This document shows positions 4,613-41,566 of a stretch of 64,000 nucleotides of DNA, piece by piece. A model generated the notes under the pieces. That model saw only the letters and a list, made by a program, of their open reading frames with translations. It made no database searches and was not told where the DNA came from. The position numbers and the translations under genes were made by a program. Numbering within the stretch: position 1 is the first letter of the stretch; every line of letters begins with the position of its first letter. This DNA is from a virus (Duplodnaviria > Heunggongvirae > Uroviricota > Caudoviricetes): positions 61,995 to 125,994 of the IMG/VR virus record IMGVR_UViG_3300033463_000016; one strand, written 5' to 3'.

Positions 4613-5748
4613 TGAGAATATTTCATATCAAAGTATTTTGCCGCTAATTCCGGCAACTCTTGTTCTATTTGTTCTAAATAAATTAGACTTTTACATTTAG
4701 TTTCTTTCGTTTTCTTTCCTCTACGGACGTTTTGTTCATATTCTTGATCTGCCATAACAAATTCACGAATAGATTTCTTTTTGAAGAAACTCGGCTGATT
4801 ACACCATCTGGTGATTGTTATATAGAATCCCTTGTATGGTGATTCGGTATATCTGTTAAATCTCATAATGTAAGGAATACAACCATACTTTATGAGCAAT
4901 TCGATTCTTTTAAACAAATCAAATAAGTCTTGTTTCCAAAATTCCAAATCCCATTTATCATTTCGATCAAATCCACAAAAACAGTAGAATTTGGGAATTG
5001 AATCGGTATATTTTCTGAGAAGTATTAGTTTTCTTTCAATCAAATCATAATCGGCGACATTATCAAAAGCGAAAATATAATCTCCATCATATTTGCTTTT
5101 GAATAAAACTTCACATTTCTTTTCGGTAAGTATTCTTTCGTCTAAACCTTGTTTGAATTGAAATGGCTTATTAGTCGATTGCAATTCGACAAGTAATTCT
5201 TCCCACTTATTGCAACCCAAAAAATTGTCATCTAACAAACAAATCTTCTTTCTATTCGGATCATAGAACTCTTGTAATGGGCTATGGTGTTGAACACGTT
5301 TATAATTTTTATTAACACAAAACTCACATTGCCTAAAGCATCCACGAGTTAAAAATCCTATCGAATAATCTAAATAGTATTTGTACTCAACTCTTTTTCC
5401 TCTGCCATTAATCAACTGTTCGTTTACCCAATCGTCATATAAGTGATAGTCCGGCATAGAGTGTTCGATTTCGTATGGCAGAGGTGGTGCTTTATCATAA
5501 AAGAATCCCGTACCACCATACTGAACATTAGATATATGTAAAATATTTTCATCTATAGGTGTATCGGTAAAAACTTTACTGATAAATACTTTTTCAAATG
5601 ATTGTAAATCATCATAATCAAGTTTTAATACAACATCTTTCCCCCTGAGTTTGTAGTAAGAGGATATTTTCATACAAACTAAATTTGGGAATCTATGTTT
5701 TTTTCTGCCGATCAAATCCGCATCAATAATTGCTATTCTCATATTCAA
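4609..5748 (-). CDS. Radical SAM domain protein
   Basis: Canonical CX3CX2C: TRGCFRQCEFC; about 150-aa N-terminal extra domain; overlaps upstream kinase gene by 4 nt. Confidence 0.7.
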   Translation of the reverse strand: MNMRIAIIDADLIGRKKHRFPNLVCMKISSYYKLRGKDVVLKLDYDDLQSFEKVFISKVFTDTPIDENILHISNVQYGGTGFFYDKAPPLPYEIEHSMPDYHLYDDWVNEQLINGRGKRVEYKYYLDYSIGFLTRGCFRQCEFCVNKNYKRVQHHSPLQEFYDPNRKKICLLDDNFLGCNKWEELLVELQSTNKPFQFKQGLDERILTEKKCEVLFKSKYDGDYIFAFDNVADYDLIERKLILLRKYTDSIPKFYCFCGFDRNDKWDLEFWKQDLFDLFKRIELLIKYGCIPYIMRFNRYTESPYKGFYITITRWCNQPSFFKKKSIREFVMADQEYEQNVRRGKKTKETKCKSLIYLEQIEQELPELAAKYFDMKYSQ

Positions 5749-10249: not shown

Positions 10250-10737
10250 ACTTCTACCTCAATTTCACCATCTGACTCCAAAAATCCCCAATCTCCATAG
10301 TTTTTAAGTAGCCGATAATATACAAACATATTAGGAGCATATCTCCTGTTATTAAAGATAGCATCGTCACTACCGGTATAGTGGCGCAGGATAGCAGCCG
10401 CTACGCCAGACGAGCGTGAAATCCCGGCATCACAATGCACGATGATTTTTCGCTCTTTATTTTTCTCTACAAAATCAATGATTTGCTTCGCTTGTTCATC
10501 AGTGAACAAATCATATTCCGTAACAGTGTGTCCATATACATCTCTATCATTGACGCCATCAGCATCACAAAATGAGATAAACAAAATATCTTTTACACAG
10601 TTTGCATAACTGCAAAACGGGACATTCGGGTAGTCTATATATGGAGTAAATAGTGAAATCATCACAGAGTCGTCACACCAATGGTCATTATTACAATATT
10701 CAATAGCCTTGCCACGACTCATTACAATAACATTCAT
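10246..10737 (-). CDS. Protein tyrosine / dual-specificity phosphatase
   Basis: CX5R active-site loop VHCDAGISRSSG. Confidence 0.7.
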   Translation of the reverse strand: MNVIVMSRGKAIEYCNNDHWCDDSVMISLFTPYIDYPNVPFCSYANCVKDILFISFCDADGVNDRDVYGHTVTEYDLFTDEQAKQIIDFVEKNKERKIIVHCDAGISRSSGVAAAILRHYTGSDDAIFNNRRYAPNMFVYYRLLKNYGDWGFLESDGEIEVEV

Positions 10738-11876: not shown

Positions 11877-12146
11877 TTAATCCAGACCCAATCTTTGTCT
11901 GCATTCTGATCTTGAAATCTTACCCATTTTGAACTCTATTTCGGTTTTAAGTGTATCACCGTTATAAAACGTGAAATGAAGTGCTTTAAGATGGTTTCTA
12001 ATTTCTTTTAGTGCTTCTTCCGGTGACAAATGTGACTTACTTGCTTCAACTAATAGTTCACATATCATTGATTCATCGGCAATAAATTCACGAACCAACC
12101 AATTTAGTTCATCTTTATCAAGGTTGTTCAATTCTTTCTTATACAT
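11877..12146 (-). CDS. Hypothetical protein
   Basis: 89-aa ORF. Confidence 0.35.
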   Translation of the reverse strand: MYKKELNNLDKDELNWLVREFIADESMICELLVEASKSHLSPEEALKEIRNHLKALHFTFYNGDTLKTEIEFKMGKISRSECRQRLGLD

Positions 12147-13377
12147 TTTGATGATCCTTTGATCCTACAATCAGCCAACAGATCGCCATTGCCACAATAT
12201 ATAAGATGGCGCCAATCATAAAAATAATATTATAATTGTTGGTTTTATTTAATATAATCTCTGATGTATTATTGCCAGTTAAACCTGCGATCGCCCAAGC
12301 TGATAAAGCCAACCCGTGAATCTGGCTTATCTTCTTCATCCCGAATCGCTCAGATAGCAATGCGGGTAGAGTCGAGAAGCCGCCACCATATCCTGCGTTA
12401 ATAACTAATAGTGATATAATTACTATTATTGAAAATACAATATTTCCCGCTTGGTTTACTGTATCGAATAGGAATACGACAAATGAGATAGCAATACAAC
12501 TAACGAAAATAATCATATACACTGTATTGCGTTCCTTGAATTTATCGGATAATGTTGAATATCCAATTCTGCCGAGAGCGTTAAATCCTGCGGTAACTGA
12601 AGGTATTACACTAACAATCGTAGCAAGCGCAGCAGTCCCAGCAAATGTAACATTCAAAATCTGCTTTTCATAAGAGATAATCATCAATCCACAATGAATA
12701 TTAATAAAGAACATCAACCAAATTCCAACGAACTGTTTATTCTTAAACATTAGCAGAACATTAGTATCATCCTTATTTGCCGACTCTACCCATCCTTCGG
12801 GTTTTTTCAAAAGGATATGTCCGAGGAACATTAAGCAGAAATACGCAGCACCTAGGATCATAAACATAGGCGCTATTCCGAAATTGTTCTGTAACCATTC
12901 CATAATCGGCGTCGCAATAGCTTTTGCAAGTCCGAATCCCATAATCGAAATGCCTGTTGCAAGCCCTTTGTTTTCACTGAACCAGAGCATTAGTGTTTTG
13001 ACGGGAGTAAGATAACCGATTCCTAATCCTATTCCCATAATCGCTCCGTAGCATAGATATATACAGATCATAGCCGCCCAACCTGTCAGGAATTGGATAG
13101 AGAATCCCGTTCCGATCATACCGACAGCAAAACAAATGCAAGAAGTTAATGACGATTTATGTATATTTCTCTCGACAAACTTGCCCGCAAATGCAGCAGA
13201 CATTCCGAGGAAGAAGATAGCCAACGAAAAAGCCCATCCAACGGTGAAAGGCGTCATACCGATCTGTTCTGCTATGGATTGTTTGAATGTAGACCAACAA
13301 TAAACTGTGCCTACTGAAATATGTATAAGTAGTGCCGGAATCGCGGCACGAACCCATTTATTATTCATTGCTACCAT
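12139..13377 (-). CDS. Major facilitator superfamily transporter
   Basis: 412 aa, about 12 predicted TM helices, N-terminal half and C-terminal half repeat architecture; OFA-like N-terminus. Confidence 0.75.
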   Translation of the reverse strand: MVAMNNKWVRAAIPALLIHISVGTVYCWSTFKQSIAEQIGMTPFTVGWAFSLAIFFLGMSAAFAGKFVERNIHKSSLTSCICFAVGMIGTGFSIQFLTGWAAMICIYLCYGAIMGIGLGIGYLTPVKTLMLWFSENKGLATGISIMGFGLAKAIATPIMEWLQNNFGIAPMFMILGAAYFCLMFLGHILLKKPEGWVESANKDDTNVLLMFKNKQFVGIWLMFFINIHCGLMIISYEKQILNVTFAGTAALATIVSVIPSVTAGFNALGRIGYSTLSDKFKERNTVYMIIFVSCIAISFVVFLFDTVNQAGNIVFSIIVIISLLVINAGYGGGFSTLPALLSERFGMKKISQIHGLALSAWAIAGLTGNNTSEIILNKTNNYNIIFMIGAILYIVAMAICWLIVGSKDHQNV

Positions 13378-27216: not shown

Positions 27217-27315
27217 AAGGCTCGTTATGACACTGCCTGATGCTCTCCCTGCTGAGCTACAATCGCCATACGGCGAACGATAGGACTCGAACCTATGACT
27301 CTCTGGTTTTCATAT
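27217..27315 (-). ncRNA. CAGCAAT-box tRNA-like RNA, copy g
   Basis: 5' AAGGCTC TAACAGCAATTTTATATG ... ATAGGTTCGAGTCCTAT ... GGCGATTGTAGCTCAGCAGGGAGAGCA ... GAGCCTT 3'; closing stem AAGGCTC/GAGCCTT. Confidence 0.5.
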
Positions 27316-27385
27316 AAAATTGCTGTTAGAGCCTTATTTTCAACAATAAAATTGGTATTTGATTGTCATTTCATTTTCAAAAATC

Positions 27386-27491
27386 AAGACACTTTCGCGT
27401 ACCCATTAGGGTTTGAGGGACTCGAACCCTCTGAAATTAACTTTCCATAGTTGATTTGTTATCCATATCGTAAAATTGCTGTAAGTGCCTT
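27386..27491 (-). ncRNA. CAGCAAT-box tRNA-like RNA, copy h
   Basis: Begins 3 nt after tRNA-Lys CCA: 5' AAGGCAC TTACAGCAATTTTACG ... GAGGGTTCGAGTCCCTC ... GTGTCTT 3'. Confidence 0.5.
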
Positions 27492-27494
27492 ATG

Positions 27495-27569
27495 TGGTGC
27501 GCGTGATGGGAGTCGAACCCAACTAAGCACGATTAAAAGTCGTGTGCATAGCCGCTTTGCTACACGCGC
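27495..27569 (-). tRNA. tRNA-Lys (TTT), CCA encoded
   Basis: Acceptor GCGCGTG/CACGCGC, D-arm GCAA..GCAC, anticodon stem CACGA/TCGTG with loop CTTTTAA, T-loop GGGTTCGACTCCC. Confidence 0.85.
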
Positions 27570-27574
27570 ATATA

Positions 27575-27648
27575 TAGCGAGTACAAGGAGTCGAACCCTG
27601 TTTCCCCACCCGTTTCGGAGTAGCGCAATTCCGATATACTAACTCGCT
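27575..27648 (-). pseudogene. tRNA-like gene without a foldable anticodon arm
   Basis: Acceptor AGCGAGT/ACTCGCT and T-arm CAGGGTTCGACTCCTTG present; no 5-7-5 anticodon stem-loop can be formed; abuts next tRNA. Confidence 0.4.
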
Positions 27649-27722
27649 TGGAGGGTGGTATAGGATTTGAACCTATCCTGAAAGTGCCACAAACTAACGT
27701 GCTACCGCTACACTAACCACCC
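27649..27722 (-). tRNA. Probable tRNA-His (GTG); no genomically encoded G-1; CCA encoded
   Basis: Acceptor GGGTGGT/ACCACCC, D-arm GTGT AGCGGTA GCAC, anticodon loop TTGTGGC with weak 3-bp stem, T-arm ATAGGTTCAAATCCTAT; base preceding +1 is T. Confidence 0.5.
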
Positions 27723-27907
27723 ATTTTATTCTCATTATCTTTTAATAATGTTTCCAAGAATTTAATTTCATTAATTACAAACTTAAAGAAATCATATAAA
27801 CATATCTGTTGTTCTAACATTATTGAATCTTCACAAAACACACAGCATTGTGGTTGTGAATTGGTATAAACAACACGACCACAAGTATTACAAATATATT
27901 TTTTCAT
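27713..27907 (-). CDS. Small zinc-ribbon protein
   Basis: CNTCG...CCVFC pairs; 64 aa. Confidence 0.35.
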   Translation of the reverse strand: MKKYICNTCGRVVYTNSQPQCCVFCEDSIMLEQQICLYDFFKFVINEIKFLETLLKDNENKMGG

Positions 27908-27954
27908 ATAACTTCCAAAGTTTAATCATTCTGTATCTTCCGTTTGTGGCAAGA

Positions 27955-27995
27955 GCGCAAGGAATCGAACCCTGATTGAAATCTAAATCAAATAT
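27955..27995 (-). other. Orphan tRNA 3' fragment (T-arm plus acceptor plus CCA) overlapping the KptA stop
   Basis: CAGGGTTCGATTCCTTG CGCTCTTG CCA with no matching 5' half upstream. Confidence 0.45.
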
Positions 27996-28513
27996 TTTGT
28001 TGGAACCTCAGATGTGAGATATACTCCATTCTCAGATAGAAAAAATTTATATCCATCTTTATACATATCCTGCGCTGCAATTGAGAGAACAACCGGATTT
28101 CCGTGTCTTTTCCCTACCATAATTGCAGTGCTATGATCCTTTGATAAATGCACATAAAGGCGTGACATTGGTTTGATTCCATTTTTATAAATAGAATCTA
28201 AAACATTGGAACTCGTTCCGTGAAAAAGTATTTCAGGAGGGTTGACCTCTTTGAGTTCCACTTCCACATTAACTGAATGACCTTGATTGGCTCGAATCAT
28301 TGTTTTATCATTATTGAACGAATATCTATGTTTGCTGTCAGTGGCAACAATTTCTTCAAGGATAGACATATTTATTTCCGGAAACTTTATCTTTAATCCA
28401 GTAATCAATTCATTCACTTTAGCCCAACCGTGTGAATCAAGTTTAATATTTGCTACTTCCGGCTTGTGCCTTAATACAAGGCTTATAAAAATACTTACTT
28501 TTTTCAAATTCAT
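27983..28513 (-). CDS. kptA: RNA 2'-phosphotransferase (Tpt1/KptA family)
   Basis: SIFISLVLRHKPE, IRANQGHS, LFHGTS, HVHLS and RHGNPVVL family motifs; 176 aa. Confidence 0.8.
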   Translation of the reverse strand: MNLKKVSIFISLVLRHKPEVANIKLDSHGWAKVNELITGLKIKFPEINMSILEEIVATDSKHRYSFNNDKTMIRANQGHSVNVEVELKEVNPPEILFHGTSSNVLDSIYKNGIKPMSRLYVHLSKDHSTAIMVGKRHGNPVVLSIAAQDMYKDGYKFFLSENGVYLTSEVPTKYLI

Positions 28514-28564
28514 AAGTTTTACCTATTCATCGTCCTTATATGGTTTCATACTTCCACAAAATTT

Positions 28565-28807
28565 TCATCCTTGACACTCGATCCAATTCATAAAATACTG
28601 AAAAAACATATCAGAAGTGATTTCCGGCGGTGTTTCGATTATACCATCGAGTTCAGTAAGATTGGTGCGGAACATCGGTAGGAACTTAACACAAGGAGAT
28701 TGATCGCTTGTCCAACACCATTCAGCATTATTCCGGCAATGATTACACTGGTTGGATTGCTTTTTCTTATAATGACTAAATAAACTCATATCAATACTCC
28801 GTATCAC
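28565..28807 (-). CDS. Hypothetical Cys-rich protein
   Basis: 80-aa ORF with CNHC...C...C. Confidence 0.3.
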   Translation of the reverse strand: MIRSIDMSLFSHYKKKQSNQCNHCRNNAEWCWTSDQSPCVKFLPMFRTNLTELDGIIETPPEITSDMFFQYFMNWIECQG

Positions 28808-29111
28808 AATATTCGCATTTATGTCCGTGAAGTGGAGCGCCGCAATTCTTACAATTTGTGGGAGTTATTTTCTTTTGTTTAACCTCATCCATTGTTCTAA
28901 ACAAAAATCCATTATAACCGATGGCAGCATACTTATCTCTTAACATTTGTATTTGTTTACTCTTTGCTTCACATCTAAGTGCTTCAAGTTGAGAATTTCT
29001 CAATTTTAACGCTTCTTCACTTTTCCGAAACATCCGAACAATACTAAATACCGCATACACAACCAAAGAGATAGTTGCCAAAAAGAATAAAATAGTTATT
29101 ACGTTTTGCAT
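28791..29111 (-). CDS. Membrane-anchored protein with C-terminal zinc ribbon
   Basis: Start taken at internal Met (MQNVITILFFLATISLVVYAVF) because upstream ORF portion overlaps tRNA-Trp/Glu; C-terminal CKNCG...CEYC. Confidence 0.4.
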   Translation of the reverse strand: MQNVITILFFLATISLVVYAVFSIVRMFRKSEEALKLRNSQLEALRCEAKSKQIQMLRDKYAAIGYNGFLFRTMDEVKQKKITPTNCKNCGAPLHGHKCEYCDTEY

Positions 29112-29121
29112 TATTCCACCT

Positions 29122-29195
29122 TGGCAGGGCAGCGAGGAATCGAACCCCGATAAGCAGTTTTGGAGGCTGCTGTTCTTCCACTGAACTACTGCCCT
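29122..29195 (-). tRNA. tRNA-Trp (CCA), CCA end encoded
   Basis: Acceptor AGGGCAG/CTGCCCT, D-arm GTTC..GAAC, anticodon loop CTCCAAA, T-loop GGGGTTCGATTCC. Confidence 0.8.
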
Positions 29196-29282
29196 ATGAT
29201 CGGACGGTTTTAGAGTTGCCGCCCACAACTTTGAGATGATAATTTGAAGTTGTTTTATTAAGCTCGAAGAACTATGAGCCTG

Positions 29283-29357
29283 TGGTGACGGGTACGGGAA
29301 TCGAACCCGTGTTACCACCGTGAAAGGGTGATGTCTTAGCCTCTCGACTAACCCGCC
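29283..29357 (-). tRNA. tRNA-Glu (TTC), CCA encoded
   Basis: D-arm GTCGAGAGGCTAAGAC and anticodon region CCTTCACGG closely parallel E. coli tRNA-Glu; T-arm ACGGGTTCGATTCCCGT. Confidence 0.75.
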
Positions 29358-29446
29358 ATAGATTGCCGTCTTTCCGGCTGTCAGTTTGCTGGCACAGACG
29401 GCTTTTCCATACATTTTGTGAATGATGCGTAGAGGAATTACCCTCT

Positions 29447-29935
29447 TGGTGGAGATGGCGGGAATTGAACCCGCGTCCAAAATTCATACTCAAATTAACT
29501 CTTTTTACGCAATAGACCGAATTTCGCCGAACGTCGCTCGGTCAAACGATGGGTAACATTATAACTTGCGATCATATATAATTGAATGTTCGTTATATGA
29601 TGCAAGAGGTCGTCGGAAACCTGGGCTGCAAAGGTATTGCGCAAGTCCACCACTTGCTTTTTAGGAAAGCAAGAAAACCGGTGAGTAAAACTCCACTACC
29701 ACTTGTCTTTAGGCTCAGACAAGAAACCATCATTCAATATTCGTCCGGCAAATTAACCGAATGATAGGTGTTTGCTGGAATCTGGATCAAGCCGCAGCTC
29801 TCTTAGAGAGAACAGCAACAAGAGCCGGATGTAAAGATACAACAGTATTGTCGTTTATTTTTGTTTTGCGCCGTGAGGTGGTCGCCAACCTGCGAAGTTA
29901 ATTCTTTCAAAACCCTGTCGAAGCCTGTCATCCCC
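29447..29935 (-). ncRNA. ssrA: tmRNA (SsrA)
   Basis: 5' GGGGATGACAGGCTTCGACAGGG and 3' GGACGCGGGTTCAATTCCCGCCATCTCCACCA match tmRNA termini; internal tag ORF ending ...KRAAA-TGA. About 489 nt, long for a tmRNA. Confidence 0.8.
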
Positions 29936-29941
29936 ATATAA

Positions 29942-30035
29942 TGGCGGAGCGGGTGGGACTCGAACCCACACGCCGGGAAACCCGACTACTCAGGGATTAG
30001 CAATCCCCTATCTTACCAATTAGGCTTACCGCTCC
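29942..30035 (-). tRNA. tRNA-Ser (GCT), long variable arm, CCA encoded
   Basis: Acceptor GGAGCGG/CCGCTCC, anticodon loop TTGCTAA, extra arm, T-arm GTGGGTTCGAGTCCCAC. Confidence 0.8.
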
Positions 30036-30387
30036 ATATATAGCCCTGATAACCACCAAAACTTGAATAACCTTATTGTGATCGTGTGCTTTTTGTGTAT
30101 CAGAGCTATTACTTTTGTTACCTTGGCTATTATTTCCGCGACGTTGCGCTGACGCCAGGCGGACTTAGGTTGCCATCCTAATCGTTTATACCCAATTCCG
30201 TTGCCAACTCGGAAAGGTTTTAATCAAAGATGCGAATCCCATCTTATCCGTTTGTCTGTATCGGGCTGAACGAATCAAAAAGCCCGCCGCTTCGGTTTAA
30301 GCAGTACCACACGCTATTTTCAGGTAAAGCGCACCCACCCCACCAGTGGTAAACACCAGCGCAAACAAACTATTTTGGCAACAGGCA

Positions 30388-30461
30388 GTTCGACCTTTGG
30401 CTCTCGTGGCGGGATTTGAACCCGCGTAATCCATCCGCCTAATATAGCGCTACTTATTAGG
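30388..30461 (-). ncRNA. D-arm-less tRNA-like RNA (7-bp anticodon-like stem, 10-nt loop), CCA encoded
   Basis: Acceptor TCTCGTG/CACGAGA, stem CCTAATA/TATTAGG with loop AGTAGCGCTA, T-arm GCGGGTTCAAATCCCGC; no D-arm can be formed. Confidence 0.4.
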
Positions 30462-30477
30462 CTCCACGAGAATATAT

Positions 30478-30551
30478 TGGCTGGGCTATCAGGACTCGAA
30501 CCTAAACCAACAGAGTCAAAGTCTGTTGTGCTGCCATTACACCATAGCCCA
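30478..30551 (-). tRNA. tRNA-Gln (TTG), CCA encoded
   Basis: Acceptor TGGGCTA/TAGCCCA, D-arm GTGT..GCAC, anticodon stem ACAGA/TCTGT with loop CTTTGAC, T-loop GGTTCGAGTCC. Confidence 0.8.
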
Positions 30552-30845
30552 TTAAAAATGCGGCTCCGAGATTTAATCGTGTCCGACCGCCTTGTTTATT
30601 CTCGAAACTTAGGGACTAATCCGATTCGCACGGTGACTACACCTATTTATACTCCGTTGCTGACAATCTTTGGAGTTTTAGATCGAGCCATAGGAATTTC
30701 ACCTATGGGAGCAACATCCGGATTTGGTCTGCGCAGCACCGTGCCGGAAAGCCTTTTGTTTAATCCTGTTGGCTTAAACAGTCTTTGTCTAATTGAATTT
30801 GTGTTGCTTTTTCATATTTCATATTTTTAAGAGATTTTCTTTTTG

Positions 30846-30892
30846 GGCGAGATATTGTGGGACTCGAACCCACATCTCCGCTTTACTTATCG
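30846..30892 (-). other. tRNA-like minihelix (acceptor plus T-arm only)
   Basis: GAGAT GTGGGTTCGAGTCCCACA ATATCTC; no D or anticodon arms. Confidence 0.35.
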
Positions 30893-31018
30893 CGGTATTT
30901 TACCTTTAAACTATCACTCTAATCTCTGCCACACTATTACCGCGTTGTACGGGCGCTTATGTAATAGTTTGTACGTTGTGGCATACTCAATATGGATTTA
31001 TACTCACTACTCGACTTA

Positions 31019-31095
31019 TGGAGCGGACAGCAGGATTTGAACCCGTACTCTCAGTTTGGAAAACTGATGTGCTAACCGTTAAACACTATGCCCGC
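31019..31095 (-). tRNA. tRNA-Gly (TCC), CCA encoded
   Basis: Acceptor GCGGGCA/TGTCCGC, D-arm GTGT..GCAC, anticodon stem TCAGT/ACTGA with loop TTTCCAA, T-loop GGGTTCAAATCC. Confidence 0.8.
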
Positions 31096-31166: not shown

Positions 31167-32831
31167 TTAGGAGTTGTCTGTATTATCCGGCAAAGTGGGC
31201 TTTTCAGCCACATCTTCACCTGTCGTTGATACTCCAACAGGAGCATTAACAGTAGTTGCAAGGATTCCCTTTGCAGGATCAAGGACACTCGCCACCAAAT
31301 CCCTTAACTCGGCGTTAAAGGGCTTGCCGTTAAGAGCCTCATTCTCCGCATTGAGAGTTCTCATAAGGCTGGGAATACTCGCCAGAGTATCAACCAAAAC
31401 GTTACCTGAACCACCGGTCTGGCTACCGCCGATGTTGACAAACTCAGCCTTACTACCGACAGAACCCATCAGTTGCGCTGCCTTAGTTGCGACCTGAACT
31501 TTACCTTCGGTTTCGATCTTCAACTTCTCAATTTCAAAGTTGACCTTATCATTTGAAGCACGCGCTTCCGCAAGAGCCTGTTCACCTTCAGCCTGCGCCA
31601 TCAACTTCTGCCTTTCAACTTCCGCCTCGGCAAGACCCTGCTGCTTGATTACTTCCGCCTCGGCAAGACCCATTTGACGGGCAACCTCGGCTTCGGCAAG
31701 ACCCTTTTGACGTACCACATCAGCTTGTGCTTCACCCTTTTTCTTGGTAACTGCCGCATCAGCATCACCTTCGGTTCTGACTCTCTCAGCCTGAGCATTA
31801 GCCTGAATCTTTACAGCGCTGGCTTCATTTTCCGCAACCTTAACCTTTGCTTCCGAACTGATAGTCTGTACGTTAGCATCGGCTTCGGCTTCGATACGCT
31901 TCTTCTTCTTTTCTGACTCCGCTCTTGTGGCGATAACCTCCTGCTCCTTTTGAGCCGCCATATTAGCCTGTTCCTGCCTTACAACTTCAACACGACCTTC
32001 CTGCTGTGCGATTTCCTGCGCACGAATGGTCTTTTGCAGTTGTCCGGCAACAGCAGCGTCAGCATCAGCCTTGTCGGTTTCAGCTTTGTACTCAGCCATC
32101 TTTAACCTGTTATCTCTCGTCTTTTCAGCGATAGCAAGTTCGGACTGCAACTCGTTCTGAGATGCTTCCCTCTCGGACTCCGCGTTTTGGGTACGAATAG
32201 CCTGATCGACCTTTGCTTTCTTACTCTCGGCTTCACGGCGCTTATCCTGCATATCCAACTCAGCGATATTGTTGTAATAGCCATTGTTATCGTTAATATC
32301 CTGGATGTTCAGAGATACAAGCTCCATACCCATATTGAGCATTTCGTCTTTAATCAGGTCTTTGACTTTTGAAGCGAAGATCGCCTTTTCCTTCAGAACA
32401 CCTTCGGGAGTCATTGCCGCAACTACATCACGGACGCCACCCATAAGTGTCATTCTGGTGTCTGAAATAATCGCTTCCTTACCTCGCTCCTTAAATGAAA
32501 TGATCGCCTTCAGCAAATTGTCCATACTGCTAATATCCGGACGAATCTGTGCTGTCCAATTGATTTCAATGGGTACGGATGTCGAGGTCATAATCTCGTC
32601 GTTACTTGCGGTAACGGTCAGCATAGACAGATCGAAGTAATCATACTTGCGAAATACAGGGATTACGAAAGCACCACCTGAAATCTTGATTAGAGGTTTC
32701 TTACCCCCGGTCACGATCAGCGCCTTGTCAACGTCCGCAACCTTATACATCGTCTTAAATACGATTAGGAATAAAAGGATGGCAAAAACCACAACGCCAA
32801 CCGGAATTAGGATAGGCAAAAACTGTTCCAT
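31167..32831 (-). CDS. SPFH/band-7 flotillin-like protein with long EA-repeat coiled coil
   Basis: N-terminal TM, SPFH-like region, then about 300 aa of QxxAEAE / LAEAEV repeats typical of flotillin/YqiK; 554 aa. Confidence 0.7.
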   Translation of the reverse strand: MEQFLPILIPVGVVVFAILLFLIVFKTMYKVADVDKALIVTGGKKPLIKISGGAFVIPVFRKYDYFDLSMLTVTASNDEIMTSTSVPIEINWTAQIRPDISSMDNLLKAIISFKERGKEAIISDTRMTLMGGVRDVVAAMTPEGVLKEKAIFASKVKDLIKDEMLNMGMELVSLNIQDINDNNGYYNNIAELDMQDKRREAESKKAKVDQAIRTQNAESEREASQNELQSELAIAEKTRDNRLKMAEYKAETDKADADAAVAGQLQKTIRAQEIAQQEGRVEVVRQEQANMAAQKEQEVIATRAESEKKKKRIEAEADANVQTISSEAKVKVAENEASAVKIQANAQAERVRTEGDADAAVTKKKGEAQADVVRQKGLAEAEVARQMGLAEAEVIKQQGLAEAEVERQKLMAQAEGEQALAEARASNDKVNFEIEKLKIETEGKVQVATKAAQLMGSVGSKAEFVNIGGSQTGGSGNVLVDTLASIPSLMRTLNAENEALNGKPFNAELRDLVASVLDPAKGILATTVNAPVGVSTTGEDVAEKPTLPDNTDNS

Positions 32832-32913: not shown

Positions 32914-32966
32914 ATTGTAACAGATTGCTTTTCAAATGTCAATACATTTTGCTCTATTTCTTGAAT
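32914..32966 (-). promoter_or_regulatory. Sigma70-type promoter (TTGACA-17-TACAAT) plus AAGAAATAGAGCAAAA box; second box copy at 32848-32870 abuts the RBS
   Basis: -35 at 32937-32942, -10 at 32914-32919; leader hairpin CCGCGAATGAGCGG. Confidence 0.65.
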
Positions 32967-32970
32967 TATT

Positions 32971-33759
32971 TTAGAATACATTGTGAAATCTAAAAGAAGG
33001 CATAGGCGCCATTTTGAATTGGTTTTTCTTATGTAAAAAGTCTATCTTCTTTTGCACCGCAGGATCATCACAAATACCGGTTCGGATATACTTATCCAGT
33101 ACGGCATACGTGAATCCAAGGTTTTCCTCATCAGTCTTTCCACACAACCCATCTGTTGGTGCTTTTTCCATTAGATGTTCCTGTAATCCGAGAGCATACC
33201 CAATCTCGATAACTTCACTTTTTGTAAAATCTGCAATCGGAGCGAAATCGCCAACAGAGTCACCGTATCTGGTTGAATAGCCAATATAATCTTCCGAGAA
33301 ATTGCAGGTATTCGCAACTCGACCATTCTTGCTCTGAGATACGGCGTATAACATCGCCATTCTGATTCTTGCCGGTAGGTTAGTTCTTGTCTGCTCGGAA
33401 ATATCCATATGTGCGCTTTCCATAGCATTATACACACTATCGACGGCAGCACCAATATTCACCTTGTATTGACGGATTCGCAGTGAGTTCACCACAGTAT
33501 GAGCATAATCAATATCATCTTGAACGTGGTTAGGCATCAGAACACCGATAACTCTACTTTCACCGAGAGCCTTTGTACAAAGAGCCGCAACAACCGTACT
33601 ATCAATTCCACCGGAAATTCCGACGATAGCATTGTTGCCGTTTCCGTTCTTTTCAAACCAGCCTTTTATCCAGTCTATACACTTTGCGGCGGCAAAATGT
33701 CCAAATCCATATCTCTCCATACTAAAACTCTCCATTGTGAAGTTTATTACGAATATCAC
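32971..33759 (-). CDS. nadE: NH3-dependent NAD+ synthetase
   Basis: PP-loop IVGISGGIDSTVVAALC; 262 aa. Confidence 0.85.
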   Translation of the reverse strand: MIFVINFTMESFSMERYGFGHFAAAKCIDWIKGWFEKNGNGNNAIVGISGGIDSTVVAALCTKALGESRVIGVLMPNHVQDDIDYAHTVVNSLRIRQYKVNIGAAVDSVYNAMESAHMDISEQTRTNLPARIRMAMLYAVSQSKNGRVANTCNFSEDYIGYSTRYGDSVGDFAPIADFTKSEVIEIGYALGLQEHLMEKAPTDGLCGKTDEENLGFTYAVLDKYIRTGICDDPAVQKKIDFLHKKNQFKMAPMPSFRFHNVF

Positions 33760-35239
33760 TTAAACTTTGCTCAACAAGCATTTTACCGTCACGGAAAACA
33801 GGAATAAGCAAATTGCACTTTTCGGATTCTTCAACATCACGGTTGATTCCGATCGTATCATTGAAGTGCATATAAGTAATATTCTTCCAAGAATATCCAT
33901 CCCGATACGTCAATTCTCCATTCTCACCATAGAACACCTTGCAACAACCCTTTTGGGATGTTTTGAACCCACCATCTTTAGGGTCTTTGAAGATCGGCGT
34001 CGGTTCTCCATCAATTTCGCAATAGGTCGCCTTAATACAAGAGCTGAATGTATCGCGTGTAAACGGATTAAATACTCCATCTTCCTCGATACATTGGAAC
34101 GAGAATGAGCCAACACCAAGGGCAACGTTTGAACAGGCGAATCCGTTATCTTCCAAGATGCTGTAAATCATAGCACAGCGTTGGATCGTGATAGAATCTC
34201 CGTAAATTGCCTTAACGTGTGGATCAAGAACCTTGTAACCTTTACTATTGATGGTTCCACCAAAGATTTCCCATAACTTGAAAACGGTATTCGTTACAAC
34301 ATCAACACAGTTGCCAGAATCGCCACGCATCAGCATACAGCCATTATGAGCGAGGATTTCAGACTTCAACTGCGGCAGGATATTATTAATTACATTCCAA
34401 TAATCATAGGAATCCAATACAGCGGAGAATGAAGTGTTCGGATAGATTTCCGTCAAGAGTCTACGCAGCAGAGTAATTTCATCACCATCAACTGCAAAAT
34501 TAGAACACATCACAGAATGTTCCGTACTCGGAGAACCGAATCCGACCGGCTCTTTCGTACAATCACAGTTATAATACTTTTCAAGATAAGGAATTGTCGG
34601 AACAGTAGCAGTATTAAGGAACGATAGCAGCCAACCCGCACCCGCCTTTGTTGCGGATTGCAAGCATTCCTCGCCTCGGAAATCAAATGCGCCTAACGCT
34701 CTGGCTCTCGAAATACTATCGTCACAAGTCTTATCATAATATCTGTTTACAATTTGGCGATATGTATACCCAACCGTAGCAGCGATCATCGGATGCCACA
34801 TCTCAGCGGAAATCAATGATTCAAGCGACTGTGGAAGCCAAGCAAAGTCCTTATGTGTATTTGTGATACAAAACATCGGAACGTGCATCGGCACAAGCGT
34901 TCCTTCCGGCAAAGCCCACACTTCAATGGGAAGATAACCGAGTTTGTGTAACTTCTTGATCTTCTCAATGTTGTATGTATTCTCTCCAAGAGTAGCATCC
35001 ATTACTCTCTTGTAATCGCTGATAACTTCTTCAAAAGGCTTGTTAAAAAACTCACGATTGAAATAATCAATCAAATATGTTTTGATAAAGCCCTGTAAGC
35101 CAAACATTACGACCTTATCCCACATTCTGATTCTGCTCATTCTCGGAGTGAAATATGATACCGATTTCGTGATCTTTTCCGGTAGCATTTCAGCGTGAAC
35201 AGCCTTGTAATAATCAATCAGTAACATCGGATTTGTCAT
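33722..35239 (-). CDS. Nicotinamide phosphoribosyltransferase family protein (NadV/Nampt or Namat-like)
   Basis: Extensive collinear similarity to human NAMPT (SYF..R; GLQ; LPIE...PEG; DFRG; EHS; DSYD; RGDSGN; KGYK; GDSIT; VFKDP). Confidence 0.85.
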   Translation of the reverse strand: MTNPMLLIDYYKAVHAEMLPEKITKSVSYFTPRMSRIRMWDKVVMFGLQGFIKTYLIDYFNREFFNKPFEEVISDYKRVMDATLGENTYNIEKIKKLHKLGYLPIEVWALPEGTLVPMHVPMFCITNTHKDFAWLPQSLESLISAEMWHPMIAATVGYTYRQIVNRYYDKTCDDSISRARALGAFDFRGEECLQSATKAGAGWLLSFLNTATVPTIPYLEKYYNCDCTKEPVGFGSPSTEHSVMCSNFAVDGDEITLLRRLLTEIYPNTSFSAVLDSYDYWNVINNILPQLKSEILAHNGCMLMRGDSGNCVDVVTNTVFKLWEIFGGTINSKGYKVLDPHVKAIYGDSITIQRCAMIYSILEDNGFACSNVALGVGSFSFQCIEEDGVFNPFTRDTFSSCIKATYCEIDGEPTPIFKDPKDGGFKTSQKGCCKVFYGENGELTYRDGYSWKNITYMHFNDTIGINRDVEESEKCNLLIPVFRDGKMLVEQSLSDIRNKLHNGEF

Positions 35240-36087
35240 ACGTCAAACACCTCGATCTTATTTGGCATCAACCCAATATCGTGAGCGTATTTCTGATCCC
35301 GCTTTGTGAAGATGCTATTCGTAGTATAGAGCTTTTCAATCAAATCTTCGTGAAGCAGTTCACCACGAAATACCGTGTTTTCACAATGAGTCACATAAAG
35401 ATAGATTTTTCCAGCTCCAAGTTCCTTCAACTTCTTTGCGGAATGATAGAACGTGCCACCTCTACAACAAATATCATCAATAATAAGAACAATTTTATCC
35501 TCAATCTGTGATGTATCGCCTTGAACATAAAGACCCTTGATTTTCCCTGTTTTCCAATCTCGGTCTTTATCACCGTGCATATATGGAAAATTGACCATAC
35601 CCATATAACGTTTCATAGCACCACCATCGGGAAAGAAAATCATAAATGAATCTTCATCTTCGATTTTATTTTCTATGATAGTATTTTCGATTGCTCTTTT
35701 GATTAAATGCGTCGGATCAATAACTTGTACCCTATCAAACAACGCGGAAGCCACATTTGAATGCGGGTCTAAGATAACCACCTTGCGGAATTTCAGAAAA
35801 TTGATAAACTCCGCAAAATATTTGAGAGTGAAAACGTCGTTATCGTCCTTTACCCTATCCATTCGTGCATTCGGCACATAAGGCAGATAAAGAGATACAT
35901 CGTATCCGAGATTCTGATAATGCTTTGTCAAGAATAACAACGCAGCCATTTCACCATCATTCTCGTAATACCACGAAATGGGAATAGCATTGTTTTCCCA
36001 GGATATTTCTGTAACTTCCGGCGTCAAATGCAACGTGCCATCCGGAAAATGATCGAGTTTTACTTCTTCATCAAAAATCTTAATCAT
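35236..36087 (-). CDS. Ribose-phosphate pyrophosphokinase family protein (Prs/Adps-like)
   Basis: PRPP-binding loop KIVLIIDDICCRGGTF; 283 aa; 4-nt overlap with NAMPT-family gene. Confidence 0.8.
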   Translation of the reverse strand: MIKIFDEEVKLDHFPDGTLHLTPEVTEISWENNAIPISWYYENDGEMAALLFLTKHYQNLGYDVSLYLPYVPNARMDRVKDDNDVFTLKYFAEFINFLKFRKVVILDPHSNVASALFDRVQVIDPTHLIKRAIENTIIENKIEDEDSFMIFFPDGGAMKRYMGMVNFPYMHGDKDRDWKTGKIKGLYVQGDTSQIEDKIVLIIDDICCRGGTFYHSAKKLKELGAGKIYLYVTHCENTVFRGELLHEDLIEKLYTTNSIFTKRDQKYAHDIGLMPNKIEVFDV

Positions 36088-36631
36088 TCTTTACCTCGTC
36101 AATCTGACAAGAACCCATAACCATCTTTGCAGCGTTATGAAGTTCGGGAGTCACACCCGCGCAGCAGGAGTAATCACAAGCGATCTGGATTTCAGGTGAA
36201 AACGCCTTAATCACAAGGGCATTACTGATTACACAAATATCAGTACACAGCCCGACGATTTCAACGTAATCAAATTTTTCGTTCTTGATGGTTTCAGCGA
36301 GTTTTACCGATCCGAATGTTTCCTTCATAAAAACACTCTGATCGTAACCGCCATTTGTGGCGTTCAGACGCTCACGAAAAGCTGCCTCAATTTCAGGATT
36401 AAGCTGCCAACCATCAGTATGGACGATGCAGTGCTTTACCGGCAGGTGCTTTCCCTCGTTACTGTCTAGGTAGGAATTGTCAAAATGACTGTCATATGTA
36501 ACACATACATTACCATCAAAAGACCTAATCTTATTGATGACGCTGTTCACAATTGCCTTTGCTTCGGGAGTTCCAAGCGCACCGTCAATGAAATCATTTT
36601 GGCAATCTATAACCACAAGTAGTCTTTTCAT
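36080..36631 (-). CDS. Isochorismatase-family hydrolase (nicotinamidase PncA-like)
   Basis: LLVVIDCQNDF N-terminus, catalytic Cys context GLCTDICV; 183 aa. Confidence 0.7.
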   Translation of the reverse strand: MKRLLVVIDCQNDFIDGALGTPEAKAIVNSVINKIRSFDGNVCVTYDSHFDNSYLDSNEGKHLPVKHCIVHTDGWQLNPEIEAAFRERLNATNGGYDQSVFMKETFGSVKLAETIKNEKFDYVEIVGLCTDICVISNALVIKAFSPEIQIACDYSCCAGVTPELHNAAKMVMGSCQIDEVKND

Positions 36632-36640
36632 ACGTTCTCC

Positions 36641-37048
36641 TTAATTTTCCAGATTTACACCGAGCAGTTCTGCGTATTCATTCAGCAGAGCATTCACGGT
36701 AGGATCATTTTGTGCAGCCGCCTTGTAAAGCTGAATCTTGTTTCTGTTAGCGACAGCCTTATCAAGTTCCTCGGCTAACTCCTTGATTCTGGAGGCGCTA
36801 TTCTGGCGATTGAGGTATCTCGTCATATCAACCTTGCAGACGATCTCGCTTGTGACTGGCGCACCATAGTAATGGATTTTGTCGGTAATCTTCATAACCT
36901 GACCGACGCTCATACCATTGGAATTGGCAAGAAGAACATAGTCCCCCACTTGTACGTCCTTGTCAAACAGAGCGAAATTGTAATGCTTTGTGTTGACTCC
37001 GTTGTAGTGCTGAATCTCTGCGATTCTGTAATTTCCTTGAATAGCCAT
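36641..37048 (-). CDS. Hypothetical protein
   Basis: 135-aa ORF preceded by AAGAAATAAAGCAAAA box and RBS AAGGAG. Confidence 0.4.
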   Translation of the reverse strand: MAIQGNYRIAEIQHYNGVNTKHYNFALFDKDVQVGDYVLLANSNGMSVGQVMKITDKIHYYGAPVTSEIVCKVDMTRYLNRQNSASRIKELAEELDKAVANRNKIQLYKAAAQNDPTVNALLNEYAELLGVNLEN

Positions 37049-37092: not shown

Positions 37093-37118
37093 GAATAGCC
37101 TGAAATAAGAGCCGCATT
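37093..37118 (-). terminator. Rho-independent terminator
   Basis: Minus strand GCCGCAGAAATGCGGC followed by TCTTATTT, directly after stop of 37133..38140. Confidence 0.6.
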
Positions 37119-37132
37119 TCTGCGGCACTATT

Positions 37133-38140
37133 TCAATTTTGATCTAAATACATTTTCAAATAGTTCTTGACCTCTGCTGGGCTAATACTGTATGGAGCGA
37201 CGCCAAATTCAACGGCATAGGACATCAACTCGGTAATATCATCACTGTTTCTTACCGACAAAATGAGTTCCCTTGCCCTCTCTTTACCGCACTTCTTCAC
37301 AATATAATCATAGCAGCCAAGCCAAAAAATATTTTTATATGTTGTTTTCAAACCATAGCCATTCCTTATATACTCAGACAACAATTTATTCAAAGCAATG
37401 GCGATAACGGATTCCTCCCGATTATCGAAATCATCCTCTAATCTCGGTTCCACTACAAAATGTAGATAGCTGTTTCGCCAGCTTCGCATATAAACTGTTC
37501 GTCTTGCGGTTTGATACTCGGTAGCCTTATGATTTTTCTGCAATAATGAGATGATCCTACTACTTACCTTAACCGTTCGACCAGGCAAAGTAATTATTTC
37601 CGCACGCAGATTAATATCCTGTTCATTAAGATGGATTACTTCACCTAAGCTATTAAAACCACAGTAAAATAGTCCGGTAATGAGTTCAGTATAATCGGCG
37701 CGGTCATTCATACCATTCTTCCTCATATCGGCAAATATATTATCGAAATCCTGCCAAGTGACCGGCTTTGTCGATATTTCAAGAACACGCATAAAACCTT
37801 TCGTACCTTTTAATTCCGGCGATCTCAGCCAAATAATTATCGGCTCAACATTGAATGAGTACCATTCACAGATCGAAATAAGGCACGTTCTCACGTATTT
37901 ATAGTCGGACATAATAATCTGAGCCTTTGCGTCTGGTTTAAGTGACTTTGTAAGCAGCGCCCGAATCAAATAAATAAACTCATCTTGATCCATATCGACC
38001 AACTCTTTGCCGATCGATCTTTCATACTCAAACAGAATAGGAATATCAACGAATTTCTTTACATTCGCAATACGACTCTGAGATAATCCGCTACCCTCAT
38101 AAAATCCATCAATAATTTCTCTCGTGGACATTTTACCCAT
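37133..38140 (-). CDS. Hypothetical protein
   Basis: 335-aa ORF. Confidence 0.4.
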   Translation of the reverse strand: MGKMSTREIIDGFYEGSGLSQSRIANVKKFVDIPILFEYERSIGKELVDMDQDEFIYLIRALLTKSLKPDAKAQIIMSDYKYVRTCLISICEWYSFNVEPIIIWLRSPELKGTKGFMRVLEISTKPVTWQDFDNIFADMRKNGMNDRADYTELITGLFYCGFNSLGEVIHLNEQDINLRAEIITLPGRTVKVSSRIISLLQKNHKATEYQTARRTVYMRSWRNSYLHFVVEPRLEDDFDNREESVIAIALNKLLSEYIRNGYGLKTTYKNIFWLGCYDYIVKKCGKERARELILSVRNSDDITELMSYAVEFGVAPYSISPAEVKNYLKMYLDQN

Positions 38141-38200
38141 AACAACACCTCATTTATAATACGATTATAGCAATAACGATATATTTTGTCAAGAAATAAA

Positions 38201-38572
38201 TCAAGAATGTAATAAGATTGGAAATTGCACGAGGATCGCATTTGTGATGTCAGTCAAAGTATCTTCATCCGTGATGGCTCCGATACATCTATCCAGACGT
38301 TCAATATTGATTGTTTGGATTTGTTCTACCAACATTGTACTCGGAGCATTCAAACCATATGCGTGATGATTCCAAAGCTCAACGTGTACCGGCAACTTCC
38401 GTTTGTGCATTCTCGATGTTATTGGAATGACATTCAACGTAGTGCTATATGTATTATTTTTGTCATTCGAGAGGATAAAAACAGGTCTATATCCACCCTG
38501 CACGCTACCCTCATTTGTGTTCAGGTAGCATAGCCAGATTTCACCGCAACGCGGATGATTAGTGCGCAGCAT
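38201..38572 (-). CDS. MazF/PemK-family endoribonuclease toxin-like protein
   Basis: GEIWLCYLNTNEGSVQGGYRPVFILSNDKNN...VIPITS matches PemK/MazF core. Confidence 0.75.
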   Translation of the reverse strand: MLRTNHPRCGEIWLCYLNTNEGSVQGGYRPVFILSNDKNNTYSTTLNVIPITSRMHKRKLPVHVELWNHHAYGLNAPSTMLVEQIQTINIERLDRCIGAITDEDTLTDITNAILVQFPILLHS

Positions 38573-40591: not shown

Positions 40592-41566
40592 TTATTTGCT
40601 CACTCCTTCGACAAGGCTGAGAATTTCATTCATTGCATCCAAATGGATAGCAGGATCGGTGATCCCCGCATTTTCCGCTCCCATCTGATAAGCCATAGAC
40701 AGAATATCTCTTAAATCTCCGATGTCCAGAGTAACCATAGGGTTGCCAGATTCGGATACGAACAGTTTTCCGTCCCTGATGTGAGTTGCATAGAAATCTC
40801 CAAAATCAGCGAAGTAACTGTTTACCTTGTCTTTTGTTAATCCAATATATCTCTTAGTCGTTTTTGTATCACTGTGATTATAGATAGTCTGCAAAAGCTC
40901 CATACTATCATAATCGTTTGGATGAAGGATACGGCTAATCTTACCAAATGTTTTTCTGGTGCTGTGTGTACCGATGTTGTATTCGATGCCAACACTAACG
41001 GCAGCACGCTTTAGAGCTTTTCTCCAACCGTCAGCAGAAATTACGTTACCCTTACCGGTTCCGCTCAACTGCAAAAATACGGGATTCTGATAGGCGTTAT
41101 CAGCCGGATTACAATTCGTCTTTTCCAAATAAAGAGTTATGGCGTCACGGCAAGCCGAGTTGATAAGAGGATTCGCAAGTTTGTCTGTCTTTTCCTCGAC
41201 GATTTCAAGCAGTTCATTCCGAAATGATCCGGTTGCCGGATTGAAAAAGTGTTCCCATCTCAGGCTCAAAGTATCGCCGATACGCCTTGCCATATTCAGA
41301 GAAATGACGAAAAGCAGATAGTGAAGCCACGCCTCATTCGCTGTGAAGTAGTCGATCATCTTCTTCAAATCTTCCACTTCAAACGGATAAACCTCTGATT
41401 TCTTGCCCTTTTTCTTATTCTGGACAATCCTCTTTGGTTTGCCGGACTTTGTGAGTTTCGGCGTATTCTCGTTTTTCGGTTCGACCGGCATTTCCGCGTA
41501 GAAAGTTTGACCTGGAAATAGCGGTGAAGTCACAATAACGGTATTGGTTTCCATTGTCTGTTTCAT
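40592..41566 (-). CDS. Tyrosine recombinase / phage integrase family protein
   Basis: ARRIGDTLSLRWEHF (Arg box), HSTRKTFGK (HxxR), TKRYIGLT (catalytic Tyr region). Confidence 0.65.
   Translation of the reverse strand: MKQTMETNTVIVTSPLFPGQTFYAEMPVEPKNENTPKLTKSGKPKRIVQNKKKGKKSEVYPFEVEDLKKMIDYFTANEAWLHYLLFVISLNMARRIGDTLSLRWEHFFNPATGSFRNELLEIVEEKTDKLANPLINSACRDAITLYLEKTNCNPADNAYQNPVFLQLSGTGKGNVISADGWRKALKRAAVSVGIEYNIGTHSTRKTFGKISRILHPNDYDSMELLQTIYNHSDTKTTKRYIGLTKDKVNSYFADFGDFYATHIRDGKLFVSESGNPMVTLDIGDLRDILSMAYQMGAENAGITDPAIHLDAMNEILSLVEGVSK

Follow-up and report, generated by a model that had tools for sequence, protein, structure and literature searches.

Four consecutive genes of a large tailed phage of gut bacteria probably form a self-contained, nicotinate-based variant of NARP1, which would rebuild NAD+ after the action of an NAD-depleting defence. 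They lie on the minus strand at positions 32971-36631 of a stretch of 64 kb from IMG/VR record IMGVR_UViG_3300033463_000016 (the window, hereafter), which belongs to a phage genome of about 170 kb and has almost all of its genes on that same strand. Their products are a nicotinamidase of the PncA type, an Adps-type homolog of Prs, the synthetase of phosphoribosyl pyrophosphate (PRPP), a transferase of the Namat family and the NAD synthetase NadE. Depletion of NAD+ is among the commonest strategies of bacteria against phages, and the principal countermeasure known from phages is NARP1, formed by Adps and Namat. Defences of the Thoeris, DSR and SIR2 types split NAD+ into ADP-ribose (ADPR) and nicotinamide. 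Besides the identities of the genes, the evidence comprises a set of residue switches in the pyridine pocket of the transferase and the pattern in which the genes occur together in related loci. We also lean towards considering these genes as a fourth phage pathway of NAD+ reconstitution, 'deamido-NARP1', in which a nicotinate ADP-ribosyltransferase is coupled to PncA and NadE and no host enzyme is required. Such a pathway would be common among phages that infect gut Clostridia (Lachnospiraceae, Ruminococcus, Oscillospiraceae), and some bacterial chromosomes may have it too.

We infer the substrates of the individual steps and the anti-defence role from the sequences, and the scheme would be as follows. 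PncA would deamidate nicotinamide into nicotinate and NH3, and Adps would pyrophosphorylate ADPR with ATP, giving ADPR-pyrophosphate (ADPR-PP) and AMP. The Namat variant would join ADPR-PP and nicotinate directly into deamido-NAD (NaAD) with release of pyrophosphate, and NadE would amidate the latter with ATP and NH3 to yield NAD+, the NH3 set free in the first step being usable for this purpose. Both products of the NADase would thus be returned to NAD+ with neither a host enzyme nor an adenylyltransferase.

A preliminary description of this stretch, made from its letters alone, had reported four consecutive genes with overlapping neighbours and had noticed their likeness to NARP1, and the three statements hold. 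The genes are those of PncA, with an isochorismatase fold (36080-36631, 183 residues), Adps (35236-36087, 283 residues), the transferase (33722-35239, 505 residues) and the NH3-dependent NadE (32971-33720, 249 residues), all of them on the minus strand. The overlap is 8 nt between the PncA and Adps genes and 4 nt between the adjacent Adps-type and Namat-type genes. The listed open reading frame (ORF) of NadE, 32971-33759, begins at a GTG that still belongs to the coding region of Namat; the true start is likely the ATG at 33720, 1 nt past the TAG stop of Namat, and the gene call on an identical metagenome contig agrees with it. Megablast of the cluster against GenBank phages gave zero matches, so that the phage is without a close sequenced relative there. 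The identical Namat-like protein is found on metagenome contigs of up to 171 kb, one of the contigs being a 4.7-kb JGI contig.

The choice of pyridine is best read from the transferase pocket. In Namat of phage SPbetaL1 the nicotinamide pocket is formed by Phe189, Arg192, Asp215, Ala242, Arg306, Asp13' and Tyr15'; Asp215 hydrogen-bonds nicotinamide, and its replacement by Ala makes NAD+ formation about 8-fold lower (PMC12774641). The equivalent Asp219 of human NAMPT defines substrate specificity (PMC7096376), and its mutant D219S is listed as substrate-switching (PMC7096376, PMC4919578), the specificity moving toward nicotinic acid (Khan et al. 2006, as cited in PMC4919578 and PMC7096376). The window transferase has NTAT in place of the GTDT of Namat and Nampt, and PSTEH in place of PA(T/A)EH, which corresponds to G213N, D215A and A242S in SPbetaL1 numbering (G217, D219 and A244 in the human enzyme). 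All 73 canonical sequences have Asp at position 215, while each of the 85 non-Asp sequences has Ala or Ser there. Searching 1.84 billion cluster representatives yielded 3291 relatives; in the best 150 (representatives at 50% identity), where the triad was read, it is G/D/A in 92 and x/[A,S]/S in about 54, the first position of the latter being K, N, P, S, A, L, R or G, and the three residues switch as a unit. The pocket residues of distant representatives were read by profile-guided alignment, as regular expressions proved unreliable. Such a switch would take away the amide acceptor and bring in donors of a polar or basic nature, as one would expect of a pocket that binds a carboxylate. D219S occupies the same position of the same fold, but it is an engineered single mutant of an enzyme that uses PRPP, whereas the window protein shows a natural and conserved three-residue switch in an enzyme of the ADPR-PP type.

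The switch in the pocket is accompanied by a change in gene content. The sample comprised 158 viral loci with 6-kb flanks, 80 loci from bacterial genome assemblies and 7 distant non-Asp representatives. Adps is present in 73 of 73 viral loci with Asp215, and neither PncA nor NadE was found within 6 kb in any of these 73, even by profile hidden Markov model at E<1; two further control loci of the Asp type likewise contain Adps and Namat only, with neither PncA nor NadE. By contrast, PncA, Adps and NadE are all present in 75 of the 84 viral loci with Ala or Ser, most of the others being cut contigs. The loci from bacterial assemblies are all of the NTAT type (one LTAT), and 71 of 80 have the four genes. 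Among the seven distant representatives, PncA occurs in six and both PncA and NadE in four; two of the remaining three contigs end just after Namat, and in the third, which is cut upstream, no NadE was found in the 2.6 kb downstream of Namat. When all non-Asp loci are pooled, PncA and NadE accompany the transferase in 150 of 171 (most others are, again, cut contigs), because of which the four-gene arrangement is not attributable to chance, and the order PncA-Adps-Namat-NadE is kept in 136 of 146 complete clusters. The idea of the preliminary description that nicotinic acid is the pyridine is supported by the replacement of Asp by Ala or Ser, by the two further pocket switches and by this covariation.

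The same observations bear on a simpler explanation, namely an ordinary NARP1 that uses nicotinamide and in which PncA and NadE are add-ons pushing surplus nicotinamide into the Preiss-Handler route of the host. Although Adps and Namat alone suffice for making NAD+ in the characterised phages (10.1101/2024.02.11.579819), we think that this explanation is very unlikely. The D215A substitution is costly in SPbetaL1 Namat and its human counterpart D219A is inactive, PncA would compete with Namat for nicotinamide, and the exclusive tie of the three-residue switch to PncA and NadE would be hard to explain.

The non-Asp proteins are a single old and diverse subfamily. They fall into at least 50 clusters at 50% identity, with 38-48% identity between deep lineages, and neighbour-joining trees unite them in one bipartition, also after removal of the three switch columns from the alignment; a convergent origin of the pocket switch was rejected on this ground. 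The covariation counts are not independent events because these proteins form one clade. At least 8000 metagenome proteins match the window Namat-like protein at E <=1e-20. The related contigs come from animal and human guts and are binned mostly with Lachnospiraceae, Ruminococcus and Oscillospiraceae, and related loci are also present in isolate assemblies of Pseudoruminococcus massiliensis and Filifactor villosus. The human-gut phage phAss-1, which uses genetic code 15, has the four-gene cluster too (L004, OQ749652.1, 4861-9299), with an extra ORF of 139 residues between Namat and a NadE that is annotated only as 'hypothetical protein'.

Two side observations concern the Namat gene and its surroundings in these relatives. 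About 40 of the related loci have an additional ORF, of some 215 residues and not in the window, between Namat and NadE (7473-8231 in L078, for example); it has no Pfam match, though a DxDxT motif (FCVDFDDTLYD), typical of HAD phosphatases, is visible by eye. Moreover, many Namat homologs are 550-1114 residues long and match in 2-4 stretches (P0123, P0138, P0198 and others), and the Namat of the Bacillus phage matches H2, H8 and H13 aligns to the phage DNA in two pieces, which suggests that this gene is often interrupted by inteins, introns or insertions of homing endonucleases.

The placement of the transferase within the NAMPT fold is clear. It has the NAMPT_N and NAPRTase domains of Pfam, not the NAPRTase_N of true PncB, and scores 387 bits against the SPbetaL1 Namat structures 9w5w and 9w5x and 319 bits against PDB entry 9ke8, compared with 167 bits against Nampt of Xanthomonas (Xcc) and 147 bits against human NAMPT. 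The preliminary description had left open whether this protein belongs with Namat or with Nampt, and these scores put it on the side of Namat. Among GenBank phages it is 42-43% identical to the validated Namat of SPbetaL1 and FADO, and its 45% identity to a crystal structure makes the fold evident. It also passes the NF006629 model, named 'nicotinate phosphoribosyltransferase', with 427 bits for a cutoff of 405, but this name has no discriminating power because the validated Namat enzymes pass as well (582-594 bits). The catalytic residues F189, R192, H245, R306 and D308 of Namat are kept, and the core including D13' and Y15' is invariant in the window clade (with one Trp at Y15) and in the other non-Asp lineages. 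The adenine-clamp residues R40 and F392 are also conserved, the stacking R40 of the SCL being Arg in 80 of 81 sequences of the window clade. The conserved core and clamp residues speak for an enzyme that remains active and directed to ADPR.

The Prs homolog was likewise an open case between Adps and Prs, and it sides with Adps. A comparison with the validated SPbetaL1 Adps gives 42% identity and 167 bits, as against at most 65 bits for any solved Prs, and the protein scores 241 bits against PHROG 619. It falls under every NCBIfam cutoff for Prs (the best is TIGR01251, 91.7 bits for a cutoff of 113), far under in the case of all the equivalog-level models, and the validated SPbetaL1 Adps likewise stays under the Prs cutoffs (106 bits). 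Both proteins share the motif DDIxSxGGTF, and the equivalent of the active-site Lys162 of SPbetaL1 Adps is Lys in 153 of 153 aligned homologs, the window protein included. K162 is the Lys mutated by Osterman et al., who reported that purified SPbetaL1 Adps is without Prs activity and pyrophosphorylates ADPR instead (10.1101/2024.02.11.579819); the same reaction is predicted for the window protein.

With respect to the enzymes at both ends of the scheme, PncA matches Pfam PF00857 (Isochorismatase) with E 1e-17, and its matches in PDB are almost all nicotinamidases: 5zn8 (B. subtilis-like), 1ilw (P. horikoshii), 2wt9 (Acinetobacter), 3pl1 (PncA of M. tuberculosis) and 2h0r (yeast Pnc1). The triad D9/K103/C133 and the metal ligands D47/H49/H67 are invariant in 81 homologs save for 3 gaps at D9, so both the structural neighbours and the active site agree with the nicotinamidase-like call made initially and suggest the deamidation proposed above. 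The score of 34 bits against the curated equivalog NF008623, under its cutoff of 174, says little about function because that model was built on the longer enterobacterial type. NadE had also been named correctly: it matches PF02540 (NAD_synthase) with E 3e-54, passes TIGR00552 (185 bits for a cutoff of 63.65) and has the PP-loop SGGxDS, invariant in 80 homologs. The domain scan found a single domain in its 249 residues and no glutaminase domain, in line with the predicted use of NH3 for the amidation of NaAD.

In seven loci (L203, L204, L206, L208, L210, L215 and L216) the slot of NadE is occupied by a protein of about 657 residues. The one scanned, in L203 (7458-9425), combines CN_hydrolase and NAD_synthase, the architecture of glutamine-dependent NadE, and the other six have the same length and the same low score to the profile of the NH3-dependent type. 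Since the NH3-dependent enzyme has been exchanged for the glutamine-dependent type, as scanned in L203, at an unchanged place in the cluster, selection in these loci acts on the function of NadE. This replacement argues against a route in which the transferase makes nicotinate mononucleotide (NaMN), a Francisella-type NadE converts it into nicotinamide mononucleotide (NMN) and a host enzyme adenylates NMN, a proposal that we find barely credible. It would draw on the short NadE matching the Francisella enzyme 3fiu, which we take to prefer NaMN, as its second-best PDB match (109 bits), but the best match is the NadE of P. horikoshii (131 bits), and the route needs an NMN adenylyltransferase. 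The cluster contains no such enzyme, and a scan of 40 window ORFs with a length of at least 140 residues gave no CTP_transf_like match.

Several points weigh against the proposed pathway. Regarding the pyridine, human D219A is listed as a loss-of-activity mutant (PMC4919578), and Ala alone is no proof of nicotinate use; moreover, the covariation may trace to one historical event kept over deep divergence. The PDB scores of NadE do not tell an NaAD-specific enzyme from one preferring NaMN, and the adenylyltransferase search covered 64 kb of the approximately 170-kb phage. As for the donor, Namat uses PRPP in vitro, with NMN-forming activity (PMC12774641). In addition, the SCH part of the adenine clamp reads GSFSFQ-CIEEDGVFNPF-TRD in the window protein: the first half of the Namat motif is kept, the Tyr at position 7 is replaced, and the loop holds a 9-residue insertion, GSFSFQCIEEDGVFNPFTRD. 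Throughout the window clade this insertion measures 9-15 residues and there is no equivalent of Tyr396, but the residue that immediately precedes TRD in the loop is consistently Phe or Tyr. The preference for ADPR-PP could be weakened in this clade.

These points on the donor are also the ones that favour the main rival, a PRPP-based booster of the Preiss-Handler route: the Prs homolog would make PRPP, the transferase would make NaMN from nicotinate fed by PncA, NadD of the host would convert it into NaAD, and the phage NadE would complete the synthesis. The pocket switch informs on the pyridine only and not on the ribosyl donor, and phage Preiss-Handler clusters do exist (PMC11662467). Nevertheless, we regard this rival as unlikely. 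The Prs homolog groups with Adps, fails all Prs cutoffs and has Adps-specific motifs. Furthermore, the phages known to take a PRPP route from nicotinate are built differently: the Sinorhizobium jumbo phage Phosso and the megaphage LR756501 have PncA and NadE together with a true PncB (NAPRTase_N), encode their own NMNAT or NadR(-PnuC), and have no Adps. Finally, sister lineages represented by phAss-1 (GAYTYQYVTRD) and L145 (GSYSFQYNTRD) combine the canonical SCH motif with the same four genes. ADPR-PP is favoured as donor by the Adps-type Prs homolog, the conserved R40 and F392, the SCH motif of the sister lineages, the lack of an adenylyltransferase in the cluster and the scanned ORFs, the make-up of Phosso and LR756501, and an NrtR-type regulator that precedes the four genes in one bacterial-looking locus. 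The plain alternative that the preliminary description had set out, of an ordinary Prs, a Nampt making NMN and an NMNAT encoded elsewhere, finds no support in the scanned ORFs, which include no adenylyltransferase, nor in the make-up of the PRPP-route phages, which carry PncB plus an adenylyltransferase.

A different question is what the pathway would be for. The same chemistry might serve as a general NAD+ supply for NAD-consuming enzymes of the phage and not for counter-defence, a purpose that we find possible if rather doubtful. The window does encode an NAD-dependent DNA ligase of the LigA type with BRCT (8219-10249, minus strand) and an NAD-consuming Tpt1/KptA RNA 2'-phosphotransferase (27983-28513, minus strand, 235 bits for a cutoff of 239), and because of these two enzymes the phage itself would profit from a high level of NAD+. 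In addition, the bacterial-looking locus L242 (128-4614) has the genes in the order Adps-PncA-Namat-NadE, followed by a methyl-accepting chemotaxis gene and preceded by a winged-helix regulator of the NrtR type (30.7 bits for a cutoff of 27), a type whose members sense ADP-ribose. This locus suggests that the four-gene pathway also exists as a chromosomal salvage with a housekeeping function. On the other hand, ADPR is abundant mainly after NADase action, and for NARP1 the anti-defence role has been shown, ADPR-PP appearing only when a defence system is present (10.1101/2024.02.11.579819). Both roles are compatible with each other.

Comparison with the known systems helps in defining what is new. 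NARP1 of Bas63, SPbetaL1 and FADO (10.1101/2024.02.11.579819; PMC12774641) has the same adjacent pair of Adps and Namat in the same order, and its catalytic Lys of Adps, catalytic core of Namat and clamp residues R40/F392 also occur in the window proteins. The window cluster differs from it by the switched pocket (213N/215A/242S), by the 9-residue SCH insertion and by the addition of PncA and NadE, never seen beside Asp-type NARP1 in 75 such loci, as well as by the predicted product of the transferase, which would be deamido-NAD and not NAD+. There are precedents for accessory enzymes that feed or widen NARP1: the Macro-domain ADPR-1''-phosphate phosphatase encoded in the operon in NARP1-AP (10.64898/2026.01.28.702374) and NARP1 with RyDEP (10.64898/2026.05.28.727677). 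In those operons the additional enzymes deal with ADPR and Namat stays as it was, whereas in the window cluster they deal with the pyridine and the transferase has changed as well. The Preiss-Handler clusters of phages (pncB-nadD-nadE of gut jumbo phages, PMC11662467; Phosso; LR756501) share with the window cluster nicotinate, NadE and possibly a PncA-like enzyme, but they are based on true PncB with PRPP and on NMNAT, NadD or NadR, with no Adps, instead of on Adps and a Namat-type transferase. NARP2 (Nampt and Nmnat, KVP40) is likewise encoded by phages and restores NAD+ against depleting defences, from PRPP and nicotinamide and not from ADPR or nicotinate. NARP3 (PnuC and NadR, PMC13464706) does so from imported nicotinamide riboside, again not from ADPR or nicotinate; given this composition, an assignment of the window pathway to NARP3 was rejected.

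None of the papers on NARP1, NARP1-AP, RyDEP, NARP2 and NARP3 ties NadE, PncA or nicotinate to Adps and Namat, and the Namat structure paper, the aRES preprint, the survey of Iyer et al. 2022 and the gut jumbo-phage paper likewise contain no such link. The suggestion of the preliminary description that an amidation-coupled version was undescribed agrees with the literature searched (subscription journals lay outside it), in which no nicotinate version of the two-gene phage pathway is described. If our reading is right, a nicotinate ADP-ribosyltransferase making deamido-NAD directly from ADPR-PP is an enzyme activity that we did not find described in the same literature. It would also mean that substrate and product are both different in a large and abundant subfamily of 'Namat', which comprises about one third of the best 150 representatives and, in gut metagenomes, thousands of sequences, while current tools label proteins of the non-Asp subfamily as Nampt or NARP1. 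The formation of deamido-NAD from ADPR-PP would link the Preiss-Handler and the ADPR-salvage branches without an adenylyltransferase. The triad, G/D/A as against x/[A,S]/S, provides a simple sequence test for separating both types. As to why phages of gut Clostridia would prefer the nicotinate route, trapping of the pyridine as a charged acid, removal of nicotinamide by the PncA of the host or abundant nicotinate in the gut may be involved.

The unit in which the four genes lie has recognizable edges. A 135-residue ORF directly upstream of PncA (36641-37048, minus strand) is probably co-transcribed with them; it belongs to PHROG 3489 (E 3e-14), a family of unknown function, and has no Pfam match. 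It was rejected as a member of the conserved module, with homologs in only 3 related loci. By consensus scan only, the upstream edge is marked by a terminator-like hairpin (37111-37126, minus strand) and the downstream edge by a sigma-70-like promoter (32914-32942, minus strand, 11 of 12 matches with a TG extension), located just downstream of NadE and serving the next gene. This gene encodes an SPFH/Band-7 protein with a long coiled-coil tail (31167-32831, minus strand), directly downstream of NadE; BLAST found SPFH homologs in 19 related loci, and in the distant locus L246 an SPFH gene (1196-2086) stands inside the cluster, between PncA and Adps. Upstream of the cluster there are a MazF/PemK-family toxin gene (38201-38572, minus strand) and an integrase-family gene (40592-41566, minus strand), and a sigma-70 consensus promoter with 12 of 12 matches and a TG extension (38164-38192, minus strand) precedes an ORF of 335 residues (37133-38140).

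Some other genes of the window might have to do with NAD+ metabolism. An MFS transporter of the monocarboxylate/oxalate-formate family (12139-13377, minus strand; best model L-lactate transporter, 254 bits for a cutoff of 320) could be a nicotinate importer, as nicotinate is a monocarboxylate. Directly downstream of LigA there is a small dual-specificity/PTP-type phosphatase (10246-10737, minus strand), with PF22741, 'PTP fused to NAD kinase', among its weak matches. NARP1 is known to be helped by phosphatases of phages that convert ADPR-1''-phosphate into ADPR, but they are Macro-domain proteins (10.64898/2026.01.28.702374), and a link of this phosphatase to a NARP1-type pathway is speculative.

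The remaining observations concern nucleic acid genes. The window contains 17 tRNA genes, at 21863-31095, and this array is adjoined by a Thg1-type tRNA-His guanylyltransferase (20950-21738, minus strand); in phage FADO, too, a Thg1 gene lies within a few kb of NARP1. Another gene, for a C5 cytosine DNA methylase, appears to be split into two ORFs about 800 nt apart (5723-6235 and 7041-7790, minus strand), the N-terminal piece bearing a zinc-ribbon insert, and the apparent split could be due to an intron, a mobile insertion or decay of the gene. PurZ-type enzymes mark phages with 2-aminoadenine genomes. The window has a divergent homolog of adenylosuccinate synthetase (245-1450, minus strand), which scores 83 bits against PurA models and 35 bits against PurZ, all of them far under cutoff.

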